Translations under genes and position numbers: made by a program | From: Escherichia coli | GTDB taxonomy: Bacteria; Pseudomonadota; Gammaproteobacteria; Enterobacterales; Enterobacteriaceae | Direction: 5' to 3' (one strand) | Length of the DNA: 64,000 bases | NCBI RefSeq assembly: GCF_029227855.1 | Contig: NZ_CP074356.1 | Notes under the pieces: model-generated | The model's input: only the letters and a program-made list of their open reading frames with translations | Told to the model about the DNA's origin: nothing | The model's database searches: none | In this document: positions 1 through 27,721 of the stretch, in pieces | Layout: each line of letters opens with the position of its first letter | Numbering within the stretch: position 1 is the stretch's first letter

Positions 1-18
1 TCACAGTACCGACCTGAT

Positions 19-672
19 ATGCCGTTTTGGCGATTACAAGGCGACGGATTCTGGCAATTACACAATGCCGAGCTTTGCTCAACAGCAGGGAGCAGCCGAC
101 AACCGCCAGTGAAGGAACTGAACGAATACCACGTTGCAGGCGGTTTCGATGAACAGCACTACGCCCTGGTAACCGGCAATAAAAAACTCATCAATACTCT
201 GGCGCAACAGATACTCGAAGCGCACTTCACCGAGAGTATTCAGGAAGAAATTGCTGACGAGCTGGGTTTTGATCTCCAGCAAATCCGTAAACAGCGCGAC
301 CCGTTATTTCGCAAAAATGTATTACGCGCTTATAACTACCAGTGCGCGATATGTGGCTTTAATATGCGCCACGACGACACCACCGTCGCGCTGGAAGCGG
401 CGCATATAAAATGGAAACAGCACGGCGGCCCTTGTGAAATCCCCAATGGTCTGGCGCTTTGCGCAATACACCATAAAGCCTTTGATAAAGGATCGATTGG
501 CCTGGATGAAAATATGCGGGTACTGGTCTCGGATGCGGTAAACGGCGGAGGGATCGTTGAGAGATTATTCTGGGATTTTGACGGGAAAACTATTGCGTTG
601 CCACAGGTGCGTAAAAATTACCCTTTTGAGGGGTTTGTGGAGTGGCATCGAAAAGAGGTTTTTAGGGGGTGA
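19..672 (+). CDS. HNH (His-Me finger) endonuclease-domain protein; possibly 5'-partial, since the frame is open from position 1
   Basis: Translation carries a CxxC...H...N...H pattern (YQCAICGF ... EAAHIKW ... NGLALCAIHHKAFDKG). No in-frame stop between position 1 and the ATG at 19, so the N-terminus may lie outside the window. Confidence 0.6.
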   Translation: MPFWRLQGDGFWQLHNAELCSTAGSSRQPPVKELNEYHVAGGFDEQHYALVTGNKKLINTLAQQILEAHFTESIQEEIADELGFDLQQIRKQRDPLFRKNVLRAYNYQCAICGFNMRHDDTTVALEAAHIKWKQHGGPCEIPNGLALCAIHHKAFDKGSIGLDENMRVLVSDAVNGGGIVERLFWDFDGKTIALPQVRKNYPFEGFVEWHRKEVFRG

Positions 673-984
673 GGTAGCCATTATATATCTTTCACCTAGG
701 ATTTTAAATGTAATAGATAAAGTATTTTCTGACACCGAAAGTAGTATTTATGAGTACATAGCCACAAATCAATTTTAAAATCTCAATATAAAATACGTTT
801 ACAAATATTCTAGTCAGAGTAAATATATATTCATTATAAGAGAATCCAATTATTAACCAATCGAAATTACAAATTAAAAAACAATTGGCATGTTGAATTG
901 TACACTAATTTATATACATAGTAAATTTACATCTATTCATGATATAATTATCGTGATATCAATTCATTAATCAGGAAAATCATA

Positions 985-1287
985 ATGGAATTGTTAAATA
1001 CTTATGATGATAAAGAAACAGCTGAAATATTTTTTGAAAAAATAGACGGAGAGAAAAGATTAGCAAGTGAGAGAGATGCTACAGAAACAGTCTATAACCT
1101 CTTCGGGCAACCAACATGGAAAAACTTTTATCTTCTTGATATGTTTAACCTAAAAGAGTTACAAGGGATTATAGAGTGTAGAAAAAATGGACAGCCGTTC
1201 GACCAGGAACGACACAGGGAAATAATAAAAATGCTTGAATATGCAGCAAAATCGTTTGACCTAATTATTCCTGCACATTGGCGATAA
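985..1287 (+). CDS. hypothetical small protein (100 aa), convergent with the Res-like gene
   Basis: ORF with ATG start preceded by a very AT-rich putative promoter region (672..984); no recognisable motifs. Confidence 0.4.
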   Translation: MELLNTYDDKETAEIFFEKIDGEKRLASERDATETVYNLFGQPTWKNFYLLDMFNLKELQGIIECRKNGQPFDQERHREIIKMLEYAAKSFDLIIPAHWR

Positions 1288-1290
1288 TAT

Positions 1291-1321
1291 CTGTTCCATA
1301 TCTCACAGAGATATGGAACAG
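1291..1321. terminator. perfect 14-bp inverted repeat between convergent genes; likely bidirectional intrinsic terminator
   Basis: ctgttccatatctc / aca loop / gagatatggaacag read directly; sits between the stop of the + strand ORF (1287) and the stop of the minus-strand Res-like gene (1334). Confidence 0.5.
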
Positions 1322-1333
1322 AATCATAATTAT

Positions 1334-4300
1334 TTACTCGCTAACCATCTTACTGAATAACTTCTCCAGATAAACGGGGCCTGTATCCTCAATAAAAAGC
1401 ACATTTCTGGCTTCCAGATTTTCTTTTGAGTCAGGTACGTTTACTAAGTCAACATAACAAGTTTCAGAAACAATAAATGCACTTAATGATAAGTTATCAT
1501 CCGATAATTTATGTTCAAGATTCTTAATTTCTTTATATAATCCGAACTTCGGATCATCAAGATTAAGATTGCGAATGCCTTTTGGATCAATAAGACTTAG
1601 CCATTGTTTACCACTTTTATCATCGACTAACCACAATAAGAAATCCGGATAAAAATTACCCGCAGTAGCAAAGCCCAGGCCTTTATTTTTAGAATCCGCA
1701 TTTCTTAGCAGATATAAACTTTTATCACCAATAATTTTCTGCCCTTTTGTCGAATCAACAAAAGACTGAAGATCCTGAACAAAAGTAATCTCGCTTGGCG
1801 CACCAAGTGCTGCCGGTCGCATTTTTAGCGGTATATTGGCATTTTTTTCAATCGAAAGAAGCGGGTAATAGAGATGTTTATCAAAGGTAATAGCAACCAT
1901 CCCGGATGCACTCCAGGATTTTGCTTTACCGATTTCGCCGTCGATGACCAATTGTTGTAATTGTTCCAGCCGACTGGCATAAGCCAACCCATCATCAGTT
2001 TCTTCGATCTCGAAATGGTACATTTTGATCATACCAGGATCATCTTCTTTCACCTGCGTGACTTCATAAAACTGACCTTCATAAGCATTTTTCAAGGTGT
2101 TGTAAAAGCGATCAGTATAATCAGTCAGCAGACGAAGCATAATATCTTCCTGCTTAGCAATATCTGCATATTGCTTAATCTCAAGCTCTGAAGCTGGAAT
2201 CAAAAGGGTATACCAACTATTTCCGATCTTTGTCTTACCGGTACAAAAGTCGATCAAACGTTGTTTATCCACACGTAAATTTGACCAGCCGCGTTGTAGT
2301 TTATAATTCTGAATGGCGAGATAAAGCCGATCAAAATCAAATGCACTAATGATTTTATAATCTAACTTCGCTTCATTGCGCACGTTAACCGGAGTATTGT
2401 CCCCTTTTCTGCTGGTATCAATCGACTCAAGTTTCGGGTATAAGTCCAGCTTAATATGCGGCTGCTTAATTTTCCCCTGAAAATCAGCAGGAACTTCATA
2501 CAATTCGGGAAAATAGACACGTTTAAAGCCGAGTCTTTGATTATCTTTATAACCATCTTTAAGCTTAAGTGTTTTAAGCCTGGTTGCTGGCATATTTGGC
2601 CGAGTTTCAAAATTCAGCTCAAGGATCTCGTCACTTGGCGTAATCCCTTCATCTTCCAGGTATTGTTTAAAGGTTGCCATGTAATCGGCACGTACACCGA
2701 ATACATTCAGTGTCTCTAATTTTTCCAGATGCAACCCTTTCGGACGCTCACCGGGTGTACTGCGTTTCAAAGAATAATTGCGACCTTTAAGGCGTACGCC
2801 ACGACCAAATAACTGAATGATCTGTGAACCTTCTCCACGGCCCATATTGAGCAATCCCATCGTTGAGACGCGCCAACTGCTCCAGCCTTCAGTAAATTTT
2901 CGCGAGCCGATCAAAATATGTAGTCGCGAGTCTTTGTCATTTAACGTATGAAAGAGTGACTTTGCAAAATCATCTCTCTGATAATCAAATGTCGTATCCT
3001 CTTCACACATTTTGTAAAGAGACGGTGCATCACCAATATTGATAAGGCCAAACGGTTCGGCCTCACCAACCTGTAATGCCAGTTCACCTTTACTGCCTAT
3101 TAAATTCAGAACTCGCAGTCGCTGACCAGAGTGAGTGGTGTTAAACAAGCGAGAAAGAATATCTGCGTAGATATCTTCCGGAGCGTTCATTAGTGCAGTA
3201 AAGCGATTTTCAAAAATGTTACGCTCTTTGGTATCGAGGATTCGCGCTTTATTTTTAATGAGATCGTTAATCCACGCTTTTGCCTGCGTTTCGTGGTTTA
3301 AAAACCATGCTAAAAAACGCAATACTGCGTGAATGTCTGAATCTTCACCACTTACCGTATTACCGACAAAAACCCACAGCGGTTTTTCGATATTAAATTC
3401 ACTTAATTTTTCTTTATTCTTATTGAATAAATATTGTTGCTGATAAAAGCTGAGCAAACACGCGGTAAAATACTCATACCGACGCTCATCTTTTTTATCC
3501 TCTTCAGGATTAAGGTTAAGAATCAGTGATTCTTTACCATAACCATCCTCATAGAAGAATTTATAGGAGTAATCGAACAGAATCGATTTTCCATAGACCT
3601 CTCGCGTCGCCTGAATACGCGCATCTCGTTTTTCTTCGCTGGTTAATGCTATTTGCGCTAACTCTTCTTCGTTCAGTTTACCTAAGGCCGTTGTTTCAAA
3701 AAGCAGCTTTGCTTTTTTCTTCTGAATTTCTGTTTCAACTGCCTCAACATTATTGCCACCGGCTACTGCCTGGCCAAAAGTTGCTGAATATTCAAACGCA
3801 AATCCGTCACGTGTTAATTTGTCACGACGGCGCATCCAGGCACCAGCAGCACTTCCGGTGCCTTTATGCCCTTCATCAATCAGAACCAGATTGTTGCCTT
3901 CAAATGCCTCAACGGCAACAGTTTTGTCACCCATTTCATCGGCAAGTTTATTGATATCAATAACTTCAATCGTGCCTTTGAAGGGCGCAGATTTACTCTT
4001 ATCGAATAACTGGTATTGGGTAAATCCTGAGTTTTCCAGCTCATCTAAATGTTGCTTCGACAGGCGTTCATCCGGCGTAAGCAGGATGATTTTATCCGGG
4101 TAATGGTGGGTATTACCGTTCTGGAAATAATGTAAATATTGCAAAATATTGACATGCAATAGCAGTGTTTTACCCGAACCGGTAGCGTTCCAGTATGCAA
4201 GTTTATTCAAGTCATCTAGAATGTATGATTTGAACTGATTAGCCCGGTCTTTTGCTGTTTTATCATTTTCAGCATTGTATGCTGCCAGCTCGTTATTTAG

Positions 4301-4714
4301 CCCATCGAGTAATTGCTGTTTACGATTGAAGTACCAGTCCAGGTAGATCTCGGTAAACAGAAGCGACAAGTACTGAAAATATTTCATATTCAGCACGGTG
4401 TCTTCTTTGCGATTACGGTGCTCAGTTATCTGCTGCCAGTGCTGTACGATATTGAGATCGTAACGACGCAGTTCATCGAGATCGATAAGATCGACCTCGA
4501 ATAAATAGTTACTCAGCTCATGGAAGAACAAGCTTTGGCCATCTTCATGGATGCCTTCAAAGCGATCTTCACCTAACCGATTTTTTAAACCTTGCAATGT
4601 GCCATCTTTAAAAAAATGGAACATAAAGCGGTTCAAAACCAGTTGCTTATGAAAGCTCAGTTTGCTGTTTGTCTCTTTTTTAACAGCTTTACCGGTGGTC
4701 GGTTTTTTAGCCAT
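1334..4714 (-). CDS. Type III restriction Res-like protein: superfamily-2 helicase with C-terminal PD-(D/E)xK nuclease motif (1126 aa)
   Basis: Walker A ATGSGKT, motif II LVLIDEGH, motif III SAT (EYSATFGQ), motif VI QLFGRGVRL; C-terminal NFYPDFLLWLV ... LSLIDPKG fits PD...DxK. ATG at 4714 lies 2 nt after the upstream gene's stop, with a GGAGGAGG Shine-Dalgarno inside that gene's 3' end. Confidence 0.8.
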   Translation of the reverse strand: MAKKPTTGKAVKKETNSKLSFHKQLVLNRFMFHFFKDGTLQGLKNRLGEDRFEGIHEDGQSLFFHELSNYLFEVDLIDLDELRRYDLNIVQHWQQITEHRNRKEDTVLNMKYFQYLSLLFTEIYLDWYFNRKQQLLDGLNNELAAYNAENDKTAKDRANQFKSYILDDLNKLAYWNATGSGKTLLLHVNILQYLHYFQNGNTHHYPDKIILLTPDERLSKQHLDELENSGFTQYQLFDKSKSAPFKGTIEVIDINKLADEMGDKTVAVEAFEGNNLVLIDEGHKGTGSAAGAWMRRRDKLTRDGFAFEYSATFGQAVAGGNNVEAVETEIQKKKAKLLFETTALGKLNEEELAQIALTSEEKRDARIQATREVYGKSILFDYSYKFFYEDGYGKESLILNLNPEEDKKDERRYEYFTACLLSFYQQQYLFNKNKEKLSEFNIEKPLWVFVGNTVSGEDSDIHAVLRFLAWFLNHETQAKAWINDLIKNKARILDTKERNIFENRFTALMNAPEDIYADILSRLFNTTHSGQRLRVLNLIGSKGELALQVGEAEPFGLINIGDAPSLYKMCEEDTTFDYQRDDFAKSLFHTLNDKDSRLHILIGSRKFTEGWSSWRVSTMGLLNMGRGEGSQIIQLFGRGVRLKGRNYSLKRSTPGERPKGLHLEKLETLNVFGVRADYMATFKQYLEDEGITPSDEILELNFETRPNMPATRLKTLKLKDGYKDNQRLGFKRVYFPELYEVPADFQGKIKQPHIKLDLYPKLESIDTSRKGDNTPVNVRNEAKLDYKIISAFDFDRLYLAIQNYKLQRGWSNLRVDKQRLIDFCTGKTKIGNSWYTLLIPASELEIKQYADIAKQEDIMLRLLTDYTDRFYNTLKNAYEGQFYEVTQVKEDDPGMIKMYHFEIEETDDGLAYASRLEQLQQLVIDGEIGKAKSWSASGMVAITFDKHLYYPLLSIEKNANIPLKMRPAALGAPSEITFVQDLQSFVDSTKGQKIIGDKSLYLLRNADSKNKGLGFATAGNFYPDFLLWLVDDKSGKQWLSLIDPKGIRNLNLDDPKFGLYKEIKNLEHKLSDDNLSLSAFIVSETCYVDLVNVPDSKENLEARNVLFIEDTGPVYLEKLFSKMVSE

Positions 4715-4716
4715 TC

Positions 4717-6513
4717 TTAAACCTCCTCCGCAAACATCAGGTTCAAGAATTCAGGTTCGATCTGGCGGATTTTCAGGCTACGAACAATCTCGCCGTCTTC
4801 TTCATCAACAGTAAAGGCGGTAGGTAAGTTATGATCGCCATTGATATAGATAACGTCGAACGTGTTTTCTTTTGCATATAAATCGAATCGGTTGGCATAT
4901 TTATTCAATTCTTCATAACCGATCTTGTCGCAATCGCGCCACAGAATAAGGGTACGCTCGCCTGTTGGTAGCATTCCTTCAACACGCACATAGCCACGTT
5001 CGATATTGGATTCGATGGATTTCACATGTAAACCAATGAGATAGTTGAAAGTTTCAACTAAATCGATGTTTTTACGCTCAGTGGCACCGGCGGAATCCGT
5101 CGCAATATCCATTTCGTAGTTAAATGGTTTTTTGAAATTATCAGTACTGAGTAGTGAACCTTTGCTTTCTGTTTCAAGCATATATTTTATTAAATACTCA
5201 TTTGCTACTGATTCATTCACTGTATCAAAAAGATCTTTTATTTCTTTTTGTTGTTCAAATCGAAGGCTATTTAATACATCTTCGTAACTTTCTATTTTCA
5301 TAACTTTAAGTATATGAGATGAGCCTGTCGTTGAATCCATAGCTTTACCATCTTTCCAATTGCTACTGAATATAACTTTTCTCAACCTGCTTAAAGTTAC
5401 ATTTTGTGCATACTCCCCCTGTTCAACAAGTATATATTTCCTTGAACCCGCATCCTTACGATTCAACTCTATGACTGAGTGGCCACTTGTTCCTGAACCA
5501 GCAAAAAAATCTAATATTATCTCATTTTTATTATGAGATGCACTCCCAATTAAATAATTATATAAAGAAGTTGAGTGACAATAAGGAAAATCAATTCCAA
5601 GATGAGTTGTTTGAGTTTTTCCTTTTTTAGCATCCTGAATTATTGATGTTATTTGCTTTTTAGCGTCAGCATATAAATATGCTTTCTGTCTAGGTTGCGT
5701 TGTTTCATCAACACCAAATAGTATATCCCCCTTATCCATCATATCTTTTAATGTTTCTGGGGTACGAGAAAAACCATTTGGTGGCATAGCGCATGGTTTC
5801 CCGGTAACTGGATGAATTAATGGTATATAGAATTTCTTGTCAGTCCTTGGCTCTGGGGCACGGAGGCTGACACTCTGGTACACTCGACCTTTCTCATCGA
5901 TATATTTGTAAGCTTGTTCACCTCCAGTAAGTTTTTTATTCTTTGTTACCCAATCATAAAATTTTTTCTTTGCTTCACTGTTAATTACAGGATATTTATT
6001 CTTAATTAATTTTGCATATTCGAGTATTTCTAATACATTCTCATTTTTCTTATTAATAGAAATCATGTTCTTTGTAAAACAAGTAGTATATTCATGTTGA
6101 ATCGCAATGCCACTACCACCATTCATGGGATTGCGTTTATCCCAAATAATTGTCCCTGCATCGATAAGACCTAACTGTTTATTAATTAAATAAAGTCGCT
6201 CATATTCATTTTCATCAATATGACAAAAAAATACACCATTTTCACTGAGTAAATTTTTAACAAAAAGCAAACGGCTATCCATCATACTCAGCCAACTTGA
6301 ATGCTTAAAGCTATTTTTATATAAAAAACCACTAGTATCTGTGTTATATGGTGGATCTATATGGACACAATCAATTACGGAATTATATTTTTTCTTCAAA
6401 AGATTTAACGCTTGATAATTATCACCATTAATAAAAACGCCATCAACATTATCGTCAATATCATTGATACTATTTAATATTTTTTCCTTAGATCTCCGTT
6501 TAAATGAGATAAA
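4717..6513 (-). CDS. beta-class N6-adenine/N4-cytosine DNA methyltransferase (Mod-like); no canonical start, probably joined to the upstream ORF by a -1 frameshift
   Basis: Motif IV IDPPYN followed later by motif I LDFFAGSGTSG (order IV then I is beta class). The ORF track starts at a TTG (6399), but the frame is open upstream to 6513 and encodes a conserved-looking pre-motif segment (DGVFINGDNYQALNLL). No ATG/GTG between the stop at 6514..6516 and 6399. Confidence 0.75.
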   Translation of the reverse strand, partial: FISFKRRSKEKILNSINDIDDNVDGVFINGDNYQALNLLKKKYNSVIDCVHIDPPYNTDTSGFLYKNSFKHSSWLSMMDSRLLFVKNLLSENGVFFCHIDENEYERLYLINKQLGLIDAGTIIWDKRNPMNGGSGIAIQHEYTTCFTKNMISINKKNENVLEILEYAKLIKNKYPVINSEAKKKFYDWVTKNKKLTGGEQAYKYIDEKGRVYQSVSLRAPEPRTDKKFYIPLIHPVTGKPCAMPPNGFSRTPETLKDMMDKGDILFGVDETTQPRQKAYLYADAKKQITSIIQDAKKGKTQTTHLGIDFPYCHSTSLYNYLIGSASHNKNEIILDFFAGSGTSGHSVIELNRKDAGSRKYILVEQGEYAQNVTLSRLRKVIFSSNWKDGKAMDSTTGSSHILKVMKIESYEDVLNSLRFEQQKEIKDLFDTVNESVANEYLIKYMLETESKGSLLSTDNFKKPFNYEMDIATDSAGATERKNIDLVETFNYLIGLHVKSIESNIERGYVRVEGMLPTGERTLILWRDCDKIGYEELNKYANRFDLYAKENTFDVIYINGDHNLPTAFTVDEEDGEIVRSLKIRQIEPEFLNLMFAEEV

Positions 6514-7838
6514 TTAACTGTTGCAAACTTGAGCAACTCCACATCAGAGGTAGATGGCTTCTCATCTAAGATGCCTAATTCAATCCATTCTTGGACTATT
6601 TTTTCATTATTAATTATTTCACTGTAAAACTCTGAACTTATTTTGTCCATAGTAATATAGTAATTACTTGAAACAACAAACTTCTTCTTAGTCCAAAGTT
6701 TCTTCTGGAAATTCTCAATTTGTGCCAAAAATGCAATGAGTTCCAGCGCAACAGTACGCAAACATTGAATCATGCGCAATTGTTTCTCAATATTGGCAAA
6801 CACTTCTGCATTTTGCACATTATCGAGATTCATTACTTCATTTTTAATATAAAAATCCAGTTCGTTAGTTAAAAAACCACCGAGATCTTTATGAATAAAG
6901 TAGTCTGCTGTATTACGCTGGGTATAAGTTGTAAGATGACGCTCCAACTCTGTACGTGACGGATTTTTTTCTGTTGGCGCACGTTTAGCAAGATCAACCC
7001 AATGCTGTTGAACTGTTTTATCAGCCAGAATTGTTGAAATAGCGGACTGCACTAAAGCATCCTGCTTAGTGCCCTTTTTCATGGCCTTATATTCGAAGTG
7101 AATAACTAACTCTTCTGTTTCAACGAGTTTACCGTCAACCACAGATGAAGTTTTCACCACTTCTACTGGCTTATATTCTTGTTCGTACTCATCGCCTTCT
7201 TCATCAATTTTGGTACGAACATGCGGCTCAATAAGTACAAAGCAGCGATCTAATTCATTATCTTTACGGTTATCTTTTGCTGTGTCCGCTGCGAGCAATT
7301 TAAAGCTAACTTTACGACCCTCATCTAATTTAAATGAATAATTAGCAAAGTTTTCACCGCTTTTAATGTAGTACTGGTCCTTATTTGCCCAGTGCAACAT
7401 CACTTCTTCGCCAGAATAAGGGATGGCGTAGGTATTACCTTTATAACGGCGTTTGCTGATAAAATCGCCGTTGTCATAATAACGCGAAAAGAAAGTCAGC
7501 AGATGGGAAAATACTGCATTTTCATGCTCATTTGCTCCGGATGCCATAGCCGCCAGTTGCTTTTTAAGCTCCTGTACTTTCGGGCTATCAGCAGGGTCCA
7601 CACCCGCATCAGTTGCCGCTTTTATTGTCAGTTGCAACTGATGTTCTAATTCTGATTTATTGGCATTTCCTGCATCCGCCAGCGCAGACTGGATTTTGGC
7701 CTTCAGCTTATTATCCAGATAGTCGTTAATTTCATCAGCACGTGCATTTAAAATACGATAAATACCGAAATCCAGTTCTGGTCGATCAATCTGAAAAATT
7801 TCTTTTAGCTTCTTAACTAATTCGTTGTACTTACTCAT
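6474..7838 (-). CDS. uncharacterised protein (454 aa from ATG at 7838); possible N-terminal part of a fused methyltransferase
   Basis: Long ORF with no motifs I recognise. Lies 20 bp downstream of the SNF2 gene stop; its 3' end overlaps the open methyltransferase frame (6474..6513). Confidence 0.7.
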   Translation of the reverse strand: MSKYNELVKKLKEIFQIDRPELDFGIYRILNARADEINDYLDNKLKAKIQSALADAGNANKSELEHQLQLTIKAATDAGVDPADSPKVQELKKQLAAMASGANEHENAVFSHLLTFFSRYYDNGDFISKRRYKGNTYAIPYSGEEVMLHWANKDQYYIKSGENFANYSFKLDEGRKVSFKLLAADTAKDNRKDNELDRCFVLIEPHVRTKIDEEGDEYEQEYKPVEVVKTSSVVDGKLVETEELVIHFEYKAMKKGTKQDALVQSAISTILADKTVQQHWVDLAKRAPTEKNPSRTELERHLTTYTQRNTADYFIHKDLGGFLTNELDFYIKNEVMNLDNVQNAEVFANIEKQLRMIQCLRTVALELIAFLAQIENFQKKLWTKKKFVVSSNYYITMDKISSEFYSEIINNEKIVQEWIELGILDEKPSTSDVELLKFATVNLSHLNGDLRKKY

Positions 7839-7858
7839 TATTTTCTCTTTCAAATCAA

Positions 7859-23103: not shown

Positions 23104-23310
23104 TTACGGGCGGGGCTGTGCAATACGCGCCTGTAGCCAGGCTTCCACTTCACTTTTCAGCCAGCGGGAGCTGCGGCCCAGCTTGATGGGAGCCGGAAAG
23201 GCCCCATCCCTGATGAGCCTGTAAAACCACTTATCTGTCAGGCCGTTCAGTTGAGTGATAAATGCCATGTCGACCATCTGGTCATCCATCAGTGAAACTG
23301 GGGTAGCCAT
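23104..23310 (-). CDS. alpA: AlpA-family phage transcriptional regulator
   Basis: 68 aa, …MAFITQLNGLTDKWFYRLIRDGAFPAPIKLGRSSRWLKSEVEAWL…. Confidence 0.7.
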   Translation of the reverse strand: MATPVSLMDDQMVDMAFITQLNGLTDKWFYRLIRDGAFPAPIKLGRSSRWLKSEVEAWLQARIAQPRP

Positions 23311-24742: not shown

Positions 24743-24901
24743 TCCCTCCTCACAGCCTTACCCGTAACCGGTTTTTTACATTAAAAAACGACGCTGAAAA
24801 TTCAACCGTCAGTCCGGAGACGACCGTTCGGGTTATCACAGAGTGCCTGAGACAGTGTCCTGCCGGAGGTCACTTCAGGGACTCTGCGCATTTTTTACGA
24901 C

Positions 24902-25507
24902 GTGGCTATTCCGTATGAACCATACGGAGATTTAACCATGACCTACAAATACAACCCCTTCTGGCAGCAACGTATTCGTGAGACGGTGCGGCACGCACTG
25001 AATGTTCATCCCCGCCTGACGGCATTGCGGGTTGACCTGCGTCTCCCGGATGTACCGGCAGCAACGGACGCAGCTGTGATATCCCGCTTCATCAATGCCC
25101 TGAAAGCCCGAATCGACGCTTACCAGAAACGTAAGCATCGGAAAGGTAAACGCGTGCATCCCACCACCCTGCATTACGTCTGGGCCCGGGAGTTTGGGGA
25201 GTTCAAAGGTAAAAAACACTATCACCTGATGCTGCTGGTCAACCGGGATACCTGGTGTCGTGCCGGTGATTACCGCGCTCCGGAGTCTCTGGCCGGGATG
25301 ATTAAACAGGCGTGGTGCAGTGCCCTGGGAGTGGATGTCGGGTGCCATGCCACGCTGGTGCATTTTCCGGCCTGGCCGGCGGTGTGGCTGGCGCGTAATG
25401 ATGACACCGGCTTTCAGCAAGTGCTGGAACGTGCTGACTATCTGGCGAAAGAGCATACCAAAGCTCACTGCACCGGTGAGCGCAATTTTGGCTGTAGCCG
25501 GAGTTGA
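24902..25507 (+). CDS. YagK/YfjJ-family (inovirus Gp2-like) protein
   Basis: Family resemblance recalled from memory; start may be the internal ATG (MTYKYNPFWQQ). Confidence 0.5.
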   Translation: MAIPYEPYGDLTMTYKYNPFWQQRIRETVRHALNVHPRLTALRVDLRLPDVPAATDAAVISRFINALKARIDAYQKRKHRKGKRVHPTTLHYVWAREFGEFKGKKHYHLMLLVNRDTWCRAGDYRAPESLAGMIKQAWCSALGVDVGCHATLVHFPAWPAVWLARNDDTGFQQVLERADYLAKEHTKAHCTGERNFGCSRS

Positions 25508-25760
25508 GCACGACTGGCGCGCCAATATCCGGCAAACCAAAAGTATGGGTTGTTGTCTGGCGGCAACGATGTATCCACTCGCCCACTGACTGTTTTTTAC
25601 GTCAGTGTTCCATTGTGTGACAACCACAGTGCTGTAACAGCAACCAGCCTGCTTTACCCAAACTCCAGTCCAGATTTTAACTGAACCGCCATTCACACCC
25701 TGACCACGCTGCCCGTACCGGGACGGCTGTTGCCTGCGTGTCGTCTGGCGGCTAAGGAAT

Positions 25761-26168
25761 ATGACTATGTACGCAAAATCCTTTATCGCTCTTGATGGCA
25801 ACGGACGTCTGACGGGCGCCCGTACTGCACAGGACGCACCTTATGCTAACTACACCTGCCACTTGTGTGGCAGTGCACTCAGATACCATCCGCAATACGA
25901 CACTGAACTTCCCTGGTTTGAACACACTGACGACAGGCTGACAGAGCACGGTCAACAGTGCCCTTATGTCAGGCCGGAGCGCAGAGAAATACAGTTGATT
26001 AAACGTCTGCAGCAATTCGTATCGGATGCCTTACCCGTGGTGCGTAAAGCCAGCTGGCACTGCAGACAATGTCACCACGATTATTATGGGGAGCAGTACT
26101 GCACACACTGCCAGACCGGAGGATTCAGTATTCCCCGGACAACTCAGGAGGAAATATGCGAATTCTGA
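25761..26168 (+). CDS. cysteine-rich putative zinc-binding protein (135 aa)
   Basis: CHLCG ... PWFEH ... WHCRQCHHDYYGEQYCTHCQTG. Confidence 0.5.
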   Translation: MTMYAKSFIALDGNGRLTGARTAQDAPYANYTCHLCGSALRYHPQYDTELPWFEHTDDRLTEHGQQCPYVRPERREIQLIKRLQQFVSDALPVVRKASWHCRQCHHDYYGEQYCTHCQTGGFSIPRTTQEEICEF

Positions 26169-26590
26169 ACTGTTATATGGCGAATGACAGCAAAGGCCAT
26201 TTTGTTACGGCGAAAGAAGCTGCGAAGCACAACCGACAGGACGTTTTGTGCTGTGTGTCCTGTGGATGCCCGTTAACACTTCAGCGGGGCAATGACGGAC
26301 AACCACCGTGGTTTGAACATGACCAGATGACTGTCGCTGAAAAAATCCTGCTGCGATGTACCTGGCTTGACCCGGCGGAGAAAGAGGCCCGTCGTTTGCA
26401 TCTGCAGGGCATGACGGTTCCGGATTATACGGTGAAGGTGAGAAAGTGGTTTTGTGTGATGTGTGACGAAGATTATGAGGGGGAAAAGTGCTGCCCACGC
26501 TGCGGTACCGGGGTATACAGCAGGGCGTGGGGGCGGCAGGAGGTGCCGTCGGAAGATGCCAGGGCTGATAATCCGTTACAGAGGCTGTAA
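26157..26590 (+). CDS. cysteine-rich putative zinc-binding protein, tandem paralog of the preceding gene
   Basis: CVSCGC ... PWFEH ... WFCVMCDEDYEGEKCCPRCGTG; start at MRILNCYMAND overlaps the upstream stop. Confidence 0.5.
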
Positions 26591-27321
26591 TGGTTGCCTC
26601 CGGAGCAGTTTGCGGTGATGCCTTTCCCGGGAATGGATTGCCAGTGCGGGGACTGTGGAGCTTAATTCCGGTGTTGGTGGCCTTTCCGTTGATTTTATGC
26701 CAACAGCCCCCTGTGACTGACAGGCTGCCTCGTCATTCCATTCGTATCTCCAGTAACAGGGGGTTGTATTGTATTTTATTGTGCCGGTTCAGGTGTGCGT
26801 TTCCCGGCGCGTCTGCACCGGCTTAACCAAATTCAACAGGGATAAAATAGTGGTAAGCGTACAGCCTGAACCGTCTGGTCAGAATCTGACGAATTAGACA
26901 AAGTGGTGTCCACCAAATAAGTAGTGGGAACCAAAGTGTCAGATATGCAGAAAAATGTGACTCCCGGCAGGTGAAAAGGCTGCCCTAATTATCCTCCCGA
27001 ATTTAAACAGCAGCTCGTTGCTGCCTCCTGTGAACCCGGGATATCCATCTCAAAACTTGCTCTTGAAAATGGCATTAACGCCAATCTGTTGTTCAAATGG
27101 CGACAACAATGGCGCGAGGGAAAGCTGCTATTACCTTCTTCAGAGAGCCCCCAGCTACTTCCTGTGACTCCCGATGCAGCTGCCGAACAGCCAGAATCGC
27201 TCGCAGAGGACCCGGAAACCCTCAGTATCAGCTGTGAGGTAACGTTCCGGCACGGGACGCTCCGCTTCAATGGCAATGTCAGCGAAAAGCTCCTGACTCT
27301 GCTGATACAGGAACTGAAGCG

Positions 27322-27669
27322 ATGATCCCGTTACCTTCCGGGACCAAAATTTGGCTGGTTGCCGGTATCACCGATATGAGAAATGGCTTCAACGGCCTGG
27401 CTGCGAAAGTACAGACGGCGCTGAAAGACGATCCCATGTCCGGCCATGTTTTCATTTTCCGGGGCCGCAGCGGCAGTCAGGTTAAACTGCTGTGGTCCAC
27501 CGGTGACGGACTGTGCCTCCTGACCAAACGGCTGGAGCGTGGGCGCTTCGCCTGGCCGTCAGCCCGTGATGGCAAAGTGTTCCTTACGCAGGCGCAGCTG
27601 GCGATGCTGCTGGAAGGTATCGACTGGCGACAGCCCAAGCGGCTGCTGACCTCCCTGACCATGCTGTAA
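27322..27669 (+). CDS. tnpB: IS66-family accessory protein TnpB
   Basis: 115 aa, MIPLPSGTKIWLVAGITDMRNGFNGLAAKVQ…. Confidence 0.8.
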   Translation: MIPLPSGTKIWLVAGITDMRNGFNGLAAKVQTALKDDPMSGHVFIFRGRSGSQVKLLWSTGDGLCLLTKRLERGRFAWPSARDGKVFLTQAQLAMLLEGIDWRQPKRLLTSLTML

Positions 27670-27721
27670 ATCTCTTTATCCTGGTTGTCACAGAATAAGC
27701 CCGGTAAAATACGGGCTTATG

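Follow-up and report, generated by a model that had tools for sequence, protein, structure and literature searches.

A tandem pair of DUF7828 zinc-ribbon genes in CP4-type islands of the Enterobacterales and their conserved linkage to a YagK/YfjJ-family Rep-like gene

Background

Among the HUH enzymes, the IS91/ISCR transposases and the Helitron Rep proteins carry N-terminal zinc-binding domains. The competence protein CoiA, a PD-(D/E)XK-class ssDNA endonuclease, has a small N-terminal putative zinc finger (bioRxiv 10.1101/2024.02.06.579203; PMC1189080). The genes described here lie in a CP4-type integrative island. Such islands are among the commonest mobile elements of E. coli and its relatives and carry adhesins, toxin-antitoxin pairs and anti-phage systems; their typical set comprises a P4-like integrase, AlpA, YagK/YfjJ, a GTPase, DUF932, an antirestriction protein, RadC/JAB and CbtA/YeeU, together with variable cargo. 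The genes yagK and yfjJ are listed in the K-12 y-ome of uncharacterised genes (PMC11551758). For Pseudomonas islands that are transduced by a jumbo phage, a 2025 PNAS paper regards the inovirus Gp2-like, AlpA and RadC genes as the likely core, with no mention of zinc-ribbon genes (PMC12595487).

The zinc proteins that are the subject of this report belong to a family that is already catalogued, under Pfam DUF7828 (PF25165) and Zn_ribbon_11 (PF11682, formerly DUF3279), and a literature search with DUF7828, DUF3279, Ybl85 or the RefSeq product names returned nothing relevant. UniProt gives the name "DNA-directed RNA polymerase, beta subunit/140 kD subunit" to many members of the family and "Competence protein" to one; as far as the sequences can tell, both names are unsupported. 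What is new here is the synteny of these genes with YagK/YfjJ, their A-then-B gene order, and their fusions to an inactivated YagK-like domain.

The znA/znB locus

By "the window" we mean the whole 64,000-nucleotide stretch of E. coli DNA that was analysed. Three co-oriented plus-strand genes occupy 24.9-26.6 kb of the window: a YagK/YfjJ gene and two small genes that we call znA and znB. Over positions 24800-26900 the window is 100% identical to the chromosome of E. coli O139:H28 E24377A. The features of interest are as follows.

23104..23310, minus strand: AlpA-type helix-turn-helix regulator, from the RefSeq annotation of the identical E24377A and ATCC 25922 loci
24938..25507, plus strand: YagK/YfjJ-family ("inovirus Gp2 family") HUH Rep-like gene, with an alternative GTG start at 24902; RefSeq annotation
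25767..26168, plus strand: znA, A-type DUF7828 + Zn_ribbon_11 protein of 133 aa; RefSeq WP_000270983, "putative zinc ribbon protein", at the same place
26146..26168, plus strand: znA/znB coupling junction, a Shine-Dalgarno sequence and the znB start inside the last znA codons; read from the sequence
26156..26590, plus strand: znB, B-type DUF7828 + Zn_ribbon_11 protein of 144 aa; RefSeq WP_001221615, "zinc-ribbon domain-containing protein"

An earlier first-pass annotation of this DNA had described two adjacent, slightly overlapping ORFs, and both are indeed found on the plus strand with an overlap of 13 nt (26156-26168). Its outer coordinates stand, but two starts are corrected here: znB begins at 26156 rather than at 26069, and znA most likely begins at the ATG at 25767 (MYAKSF…), as in WP_000270983 and all orthologues, rather than at 25761, use of which would give a product of 135 aa. 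The longest-ORF start of znB at 26069 was rejected because the ATG at 26156, which agrees with WP_001221615, stands 4 nt past the Shine-Dalgarno sequence AGGAGG (26146-26151); the znA stop codon, TGA, is at 26166-26168. As the products are identical to the annotated RefSeq proteins WP_000270983 and WP_001221615 and are members of catalogued Pfam families, they are proteins already known. Two antisense ORFs (24932-25801 and 25752-26015) were disregarded, since they overlap conserved genes and carry no RefSeq annotation. An Rfam search of 21-28 kb gave no match, a repeat scan around znA and znB found nothing notable, and promoter-like and terminator-like sites were no commoner than in shuffled sequence.

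Paralogy and predicted zinc sites

The two products had been taken for paralogues on the strength of shared motifs, and the pairwise alignment that was proposed as a check upholds that view: BLASTP aligns them at 30% identity over 125 aa with E=1e-14, which is well beyond chance and argues against a merely coincidental resemblance of motifs. Both products have significant full-length matches to the same two Pfam models, with E-values for znA of 4.9e-31 for DUF7828 (model positions 1-86 of 87) and 8.6e-9 for Zn_ribbon_11, and for znB of 9.3e-31 and 1.7e-18, respectively. The first-pass annotation had not recognised the family; it is true that no function has been assigned to it, but the databases already hold it as DUF7828 + Zn_ribbon_11. 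Sequence searches of NCBIfam, PADLOC, PHROGs and the PDB gave no significant match for the zinc proteins.

The motifs that had been listed, C-x2-C, PWFEH, W-x-C-x2-C and C-x2-C-x-TG, are confirmed. In an alignment of 37 diverse family members having 22-46% identity with the znB product, the residues C33, C36, F53, H55, C100, C103, C113 and C116 (B numbering) are invariant, and C68 is kept in at least 90% of the members. The resulting family pattern of ligands, C-x2-C…F-x-H…C followed by C-x2-C…C-x2-C, is present in the products of both genes. The eight cysteines that the two proteins were said to share in the same spacing therefore need a correction of number: the spacing pattern holds, but the invariant residues, H55 among them, make the conserved set one of seven cysteines and one histidine. 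The eighth cysteine of the znA product (C131) is not conserved, and the znB product has 11 cysteines in total. This conserved set corresponds to a predicted CCHC site and a predicted C4 ribbon, in keeping with the earlier suggestion of a zinc-binding protein.

znA predicted ligands: C31, C34, H53, C65 and C99, C102, C112, C115
znB predicted ligands: C33, C36, H55, C68 and C100, C103, C113, C116

From the pattern of ligands and a confident AlphaFold2 (AF2) model we infer two zinc ions per protein. The AF2 model of the znB product (pLDDT 87.7, pTM 0.57) has an N-terminal β-β-α-β-β module followed by a helix (residues 73-85) and, at the C-terminus, a ribbon of three strands, and its pTM suggests that the two lobes may not be fixed relative to one another. 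In a linker-fused A-B AlphaFold model, the A half has the same order of secondary-structure elements as this model of the znB product. The fused model gave no confident A-B heterodimer (pTM 0.37), a crude and uninformative test in which three rows of the alignment were padded with the query's B half because MAFFT kept placing unpaired A-type sequences on it. In a Foldseek search against AFDB50, the matches listed were solely members of the family.

Distribution and history of the duplication

The spread of the pair across E. coli, which the first-pass annotation had named as a point to check, turns out to be wide: the 830-bp znA-znB pair was matched in 3787 of 5426 complete E. coli genomes (2983 of them at coverage of at least 80%), with a median of 2 and a maximum of 7 places per genome, almost all of them chromosomal. 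The family is a small one: among 1.84 billion representatives it forms only 264 clusters (50% identity, E<=0.001), nearly all of them stand-alone proteins of 120-160 aa. The named sources are almost all Enterobacterales and include Escherichia, Salmonella, Klebsiella, Citrobacter, Enterobacter, Serratia and Yersinia as well as Edwardsiella, Pectobacterium, Budvicia, Hafnia, Moellerella and others; large IncHI1B/IncFIB Klebsiella plasmids also carry the family. Some copies that are 97-99% identical to those of E. coli are labelled Collinsella (L004), Veillonella sp. (P0004) or Pseudomonas aeruginosa (P0034); they lie on short contigs, that of L004, assigned to a Collinsella MAG, consisting of DNA that is at least 97% E. 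coli-like, and are probably contamination or binning errors. A PHROG search with the zinc proteins found no significant match, and a tblastn search of 50,697 phage records with the znB product found no match.

A genome scan with B-clade sequences returned 16 loci, a set that is biased towards B-type Enterobacterales because a single peptide pattern was used. A-type and B-type proteins fall into separate clades, and wherever tandem pairs occur the A-type gene comes before the B-type gene, with an overlap of 10-13 nt in the window and in L002, L010, L011, L012, L013 and L015; in L016 an A-type ORF lies directly upstream of the B-type gene and overlaps its start. The overlapping A-then-B pair recurs in Klebsiella-type plasmids and in Hafnia, Yokenella, Superficieibacter, Serratia, Citrobacter and Pseudocitrobacter. 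Loci with a single zinc gene (L005, L006, L008/L009, L014, L017/L018, L020, L023 and L024) have the B-type only. Because of the separate clades, the recurrent order and these B-only loci, the A-type gene can be read as an old duplicate of the B-type that has stayed attached to it. The earlier proposal of a tandem duplication is supported, with homologous products in two clades and an arrangement that recurs across genera.

Several E. coli alleles (P0033, P0038, P0041, P0047, P0052, P0054 and P0040) are mosaics with breakpoints around the WFEH motif. One type joins a different N-terminal half (MNGIKTGLG…) to a window-like B C-terminal half, and the other joins a B N-terminus to an A-like C-terminus. 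These mosaics suggest recombination between island copies, or else chimeras of assembly.

Evidence that the genes are coding

Comparisons between genera gave a median dN/dS of 0.21 for the A-type (11 pairs) and 0.19 for the B-type (39 pairs), as calculated by the Nei-Gojobori method from unsaturated pairs only. Together with the invariant ligands, the conserved overlap and ribosome-binding site and the identity to RefSeq coding sequences, these values of about 0.2 mark znA and znB, on sequence grounds, as real protein-coding genes; they also argue against the ORFs being untranslated, which had been named as a ground for giving up the first-pass reading. Many database entries for the family are truncated, frameshifted or chimeric, and A-type copies are the more often degenerate (in L007, L010, L015 and L016), as might be seen if the two ORFs were decaying remnants of an island or were not translated at all. 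Such decay is hard to square with the low dN/dS between genera, with metal ligands that stay invariant at 22-46% identity, with a conserved overlap and Shine-Dalgarno sequence, and with intact copies in thousands of genomes, and we give it very little credence.

Linkage to YagK/YfjJ

The upstream neighbour of the pair had been called an inovirus Gp2-like (YagK/YfjJ) gene, and the identification is borne out by a match of the gene at 24938-25507 to Pfam YagK_YfjJ_C (PF11726) with E=5.8e-48; there is also a weak match to REP_ORF2-G2P (E=4.4e-5). Its protein has the motifs RVDLR, HYHLMLLV (HUH) and YLAKEHTK (Tyr motif), so that the HUH and Tyr motifs of Rep proteins and relaxases occur in their canonical order. 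In an alignment of 25 homologues, the upstream YagK copies of all loci keep RxDL, HYH plus hydrophobic residues, and YLAKxxxK, again in canonical order, and these copies look catalytically competent, as predicted from their motifs. The only match to the Gp2-like protein in a phage collection was at 244-831 of OR844780.1 (93% identity), an unannotated 4468-bp record entitled "Escherichia phage ECO111 5-P". True inoviruses in that collection gave no match, and the name "inovirus Gp2" therefore lacks backing at the level of BLAST.

Synteny was assessed by searching the six-frame ORFs of every locus with purpose-built HMMs. The loci that include upstream sequence are the window, L002, L003, L005-L009, L011-L020, L023, L024 and L030, representing about 15 genera, and in all of them the zinc gene or genes lie 0.1-1.4 kb downstream of a YagK/YfjJ gene and in the same orientation. 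In other genera AlpA often stands between the two (L002, L020, L024 and L030). The adjacency is a conserved linkage across genera and not an incidental neighbourhood. There is no zinc-ribbon gene near the K-12 genes yagK (CP4-6, NC_000913.3 292322-292948), which is adjoined by IS1, or yfjJ (CP4-57, NC_000913.3 2760547-2761173), which is adjoined by the AbpAB defence pair, so the zinc proteins are not obligatory partners of every member of the YagK/YfjJ family.

Fusions and inactivated YagK copies

In some loci the association goes further. P0183 is a 454-aa protein (L003, 2797-4161) in which DUF7828 and Zn_ribbon_11 are followed by a YagK-like domain; this domain matches the neighbouring full-length YagK gene with E=1e-23 and has lost the HUH and Tyr motifs. 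P0072 (238 aa; L030, 6001-6717) consists of a DUF7828-only module fused to a complete zinc protein, and its gene is preceded by another zinc gene, by AlpA and by a YagK-like gene. The AlphaFold database also has a Serratia oryzae protein of 466 aa with a zinc module at one end and about 320 further residues. Several other loci have a second YagK/Gp2-like gene immediately after the zinc pair (L002, 8493-9059; L011, L012 and L013, at about 8405-9058). In these second copies the HUH motif is gone (HYH having become, e.g., ECK), as is the tyrosine of YLAK, and each is apparently an inactive Rep paralogue. A DUF2913 gene comes after the second YagK-like gene of L002.

Strict synteny and gene fusion in combination classically indicate that proteins act together, and it is on these two grounds that we regard the zinc proteins and YagK as probable functional partners. 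Since the fused and downstream YagK domains are without HUH and Tyr motifs, the link may be to a non-catalytic and possibly regulatory Rep-like protein.

Position of the pair within the island

The pair had been placed inside an island, and genes of the CP4-type backbone are present in the window. We count znA and znB among the backbone genes and not the cargo, because they keep the same position in islands that have different cargo. The IS66-family genes tnpA, tnpB and tnpC (27242-29103) start about 650 bp past znB, and strain ML35 has different genes where the window has these; the zinc pair thus forms the boundary of the backbone with the variable cargo. The opposite end of the island has a cluster on both strands (19-10750, RefSeq annotation only) with genes for a phosphorothioated-DNA-binding restriction endonuclease (19-672, plus strand), a DEAD/DEAH helicase (1334-4714), a methyltransferase and an SNF2-related protein (7859-10750), which looks like defence cargo. 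Over positions 1-11000, the window differs from E24377A by three mismatches and one indel. The gene for the methyltransferase, a site-specific DNA methyltransferase (4717-7853, minus strand), is split into ORFs of 459 and 560 aa in different frames, where E24377A has an intact CDS of 1040 aa; the split reflects either a frameshift in the gene or an error in sequencing.

The border position could also be read as a sign that znA and znB serve an accessory or cargo function unrelated to YagK, for example in anti-restriction, anti-defence or as part of an anti-phage system, especially as cargo often includes defence genes, the same islands have antirestriction, RadC and toxin-antitoxin genes, and anti-defence factors are often small zinc proteins. 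We consider this quite improbable, for the cargo varies but the place beside YagK does not, the zinc protein also occurs fused to a YagK-like domain, no homologue was found in the 50,697 phage records, and the defence models of PADLOC-DB 2.0 gave no match for znA and nothing significant for znB (best E=0.063).

A proposed role for znA and znB

The reading that we favour, tentatively, is that znA and znB encode zinc-dependent accessory subunits for nucleic-acid recognition that belong to the YagK/YfjJ HUH module and act in the replication or mobilisation of the island. It is drawn from the paralogy, the ligand pattern, the purifying selection, the synteny, the fusions and an apparent similarity of fold; the binding of zinc and of DNA, the contact with YagK and the process in which the proteins act are the inferred part. 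Each protein is predicted to begin with a CoiA_N-like zinc module, followed by a helix and, at the C-terminus, a C4 zinc ribbon; neither has a catalytic domain. An ancestral single B-type gene would have been duplicated, and the A and B copies, made from translationally coupled genes, presumably act together. ZnA and ZnB would then help the predicted YagK/YfjJ nuclease to find or hold its DNA substrate, be it an origin, a nick site or ssDNA, when the excised island is replicated or mobilised.

A different role for small zinc-ribbon proteins of an island would be the regulation of transcription, either through DNA binding or through binding to RNA polymerase in the manner of RPB9, TFS or DksA-type factors, with nothing more than operon co-regulation behind the link to YagK. 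The likeness to the RNA polymerase factors consists of two Cys-rich modules with a linker between them and a similar Cys spacing, and a profile comparison gives a weak match to RPB9 (E=0.013). The matches to RPB9 and RPB12 are, however, at chance level and are driven by the Cys spacing, and the acidic stretch between the knuckles of the znB ribbon (DEDYEGE) is not conserved in the family. Membership of the RPB9/TFS/TFIIS group was rejected on both counts. The fusion to a Rep-like domain and the putative CoiA_N-like fold also point to DNA processing rather than to RNA polymerase factors, and we hold a regulatory role to be unlikely.

A broader and more speculative proposal can also be made, one that we think doubtful as it stands. 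Together, and in some cases with an inactivated YagK paralogue, the HUH protein YagK/YfjJ and the zinc proteins of the DUF7828 family may constitute an unrecognised module for replication or mobilisation of CP4-type islands, in which the CoiA_N-like domains direct the HUH nuclease to ssDNA or to an origin-like site. Were this true, it would account for the replication after excision, or the mobilisation, of these very common islands, which are without conjugation and capsid genes. Zinc genes that are locked to an HUH Rep-like gene and sometimes fused to a copy of it make a concrete candidate for a three-protein module of island replication or transfer. Taken by themselves, znA and znB are an ordinary uncharacterised pair of backbone genes that now has a clear candidate partner.

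Comparison with known systems

The N-terminal module of the znA and znB products may, to judge by its sequence, be of the kind that accompanies DNA nucleases. Pfam CoiA_N (PF25164, the zinc module of CoiA) matches the DUF7828 residues weakly, with E=0.39 and 0.1, and the best 120 matches in a profile search with the N-terminal domain were all members of the zinc family, with no CoiA_N among them. The products differ from CoiA in having neither the PD-(D/E)XK domain nor the CoiA C-terminal region and in carrying an extra C4 ribbon. The CoiA nuclease model, PF06054, finds no match in them, their 133 and 144 aa being filled by two zinc modules, and because the nuclease domain is absent, membership of the CoiA competence nuclease family was rejected. 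Unlike the nuclease of CoiA, the partner nuclease here is a predicted HUH enzyme, for which there is usually a separate gene. The settings differ as well, znA and znB being found in islands of the Enterobacterales and CoiA in competence regulons.

With the IS91/ISCR transposases and the Helitron Rep proteins there is a likeness of composition, in that a small zinc module is associated with an HUH-type domain, in cis in P0183 and in trans in the window. In contrast to those systems, the zinc domains here have no sequence match to theirs, the fused YagK domain is without HUH and Tyr motifs, and no transposon ends are evident. It is with the DUF7828 + Zn_ribbon_11 family that the agreement is complete: znA and znB encode full-length members that show no difference from it.
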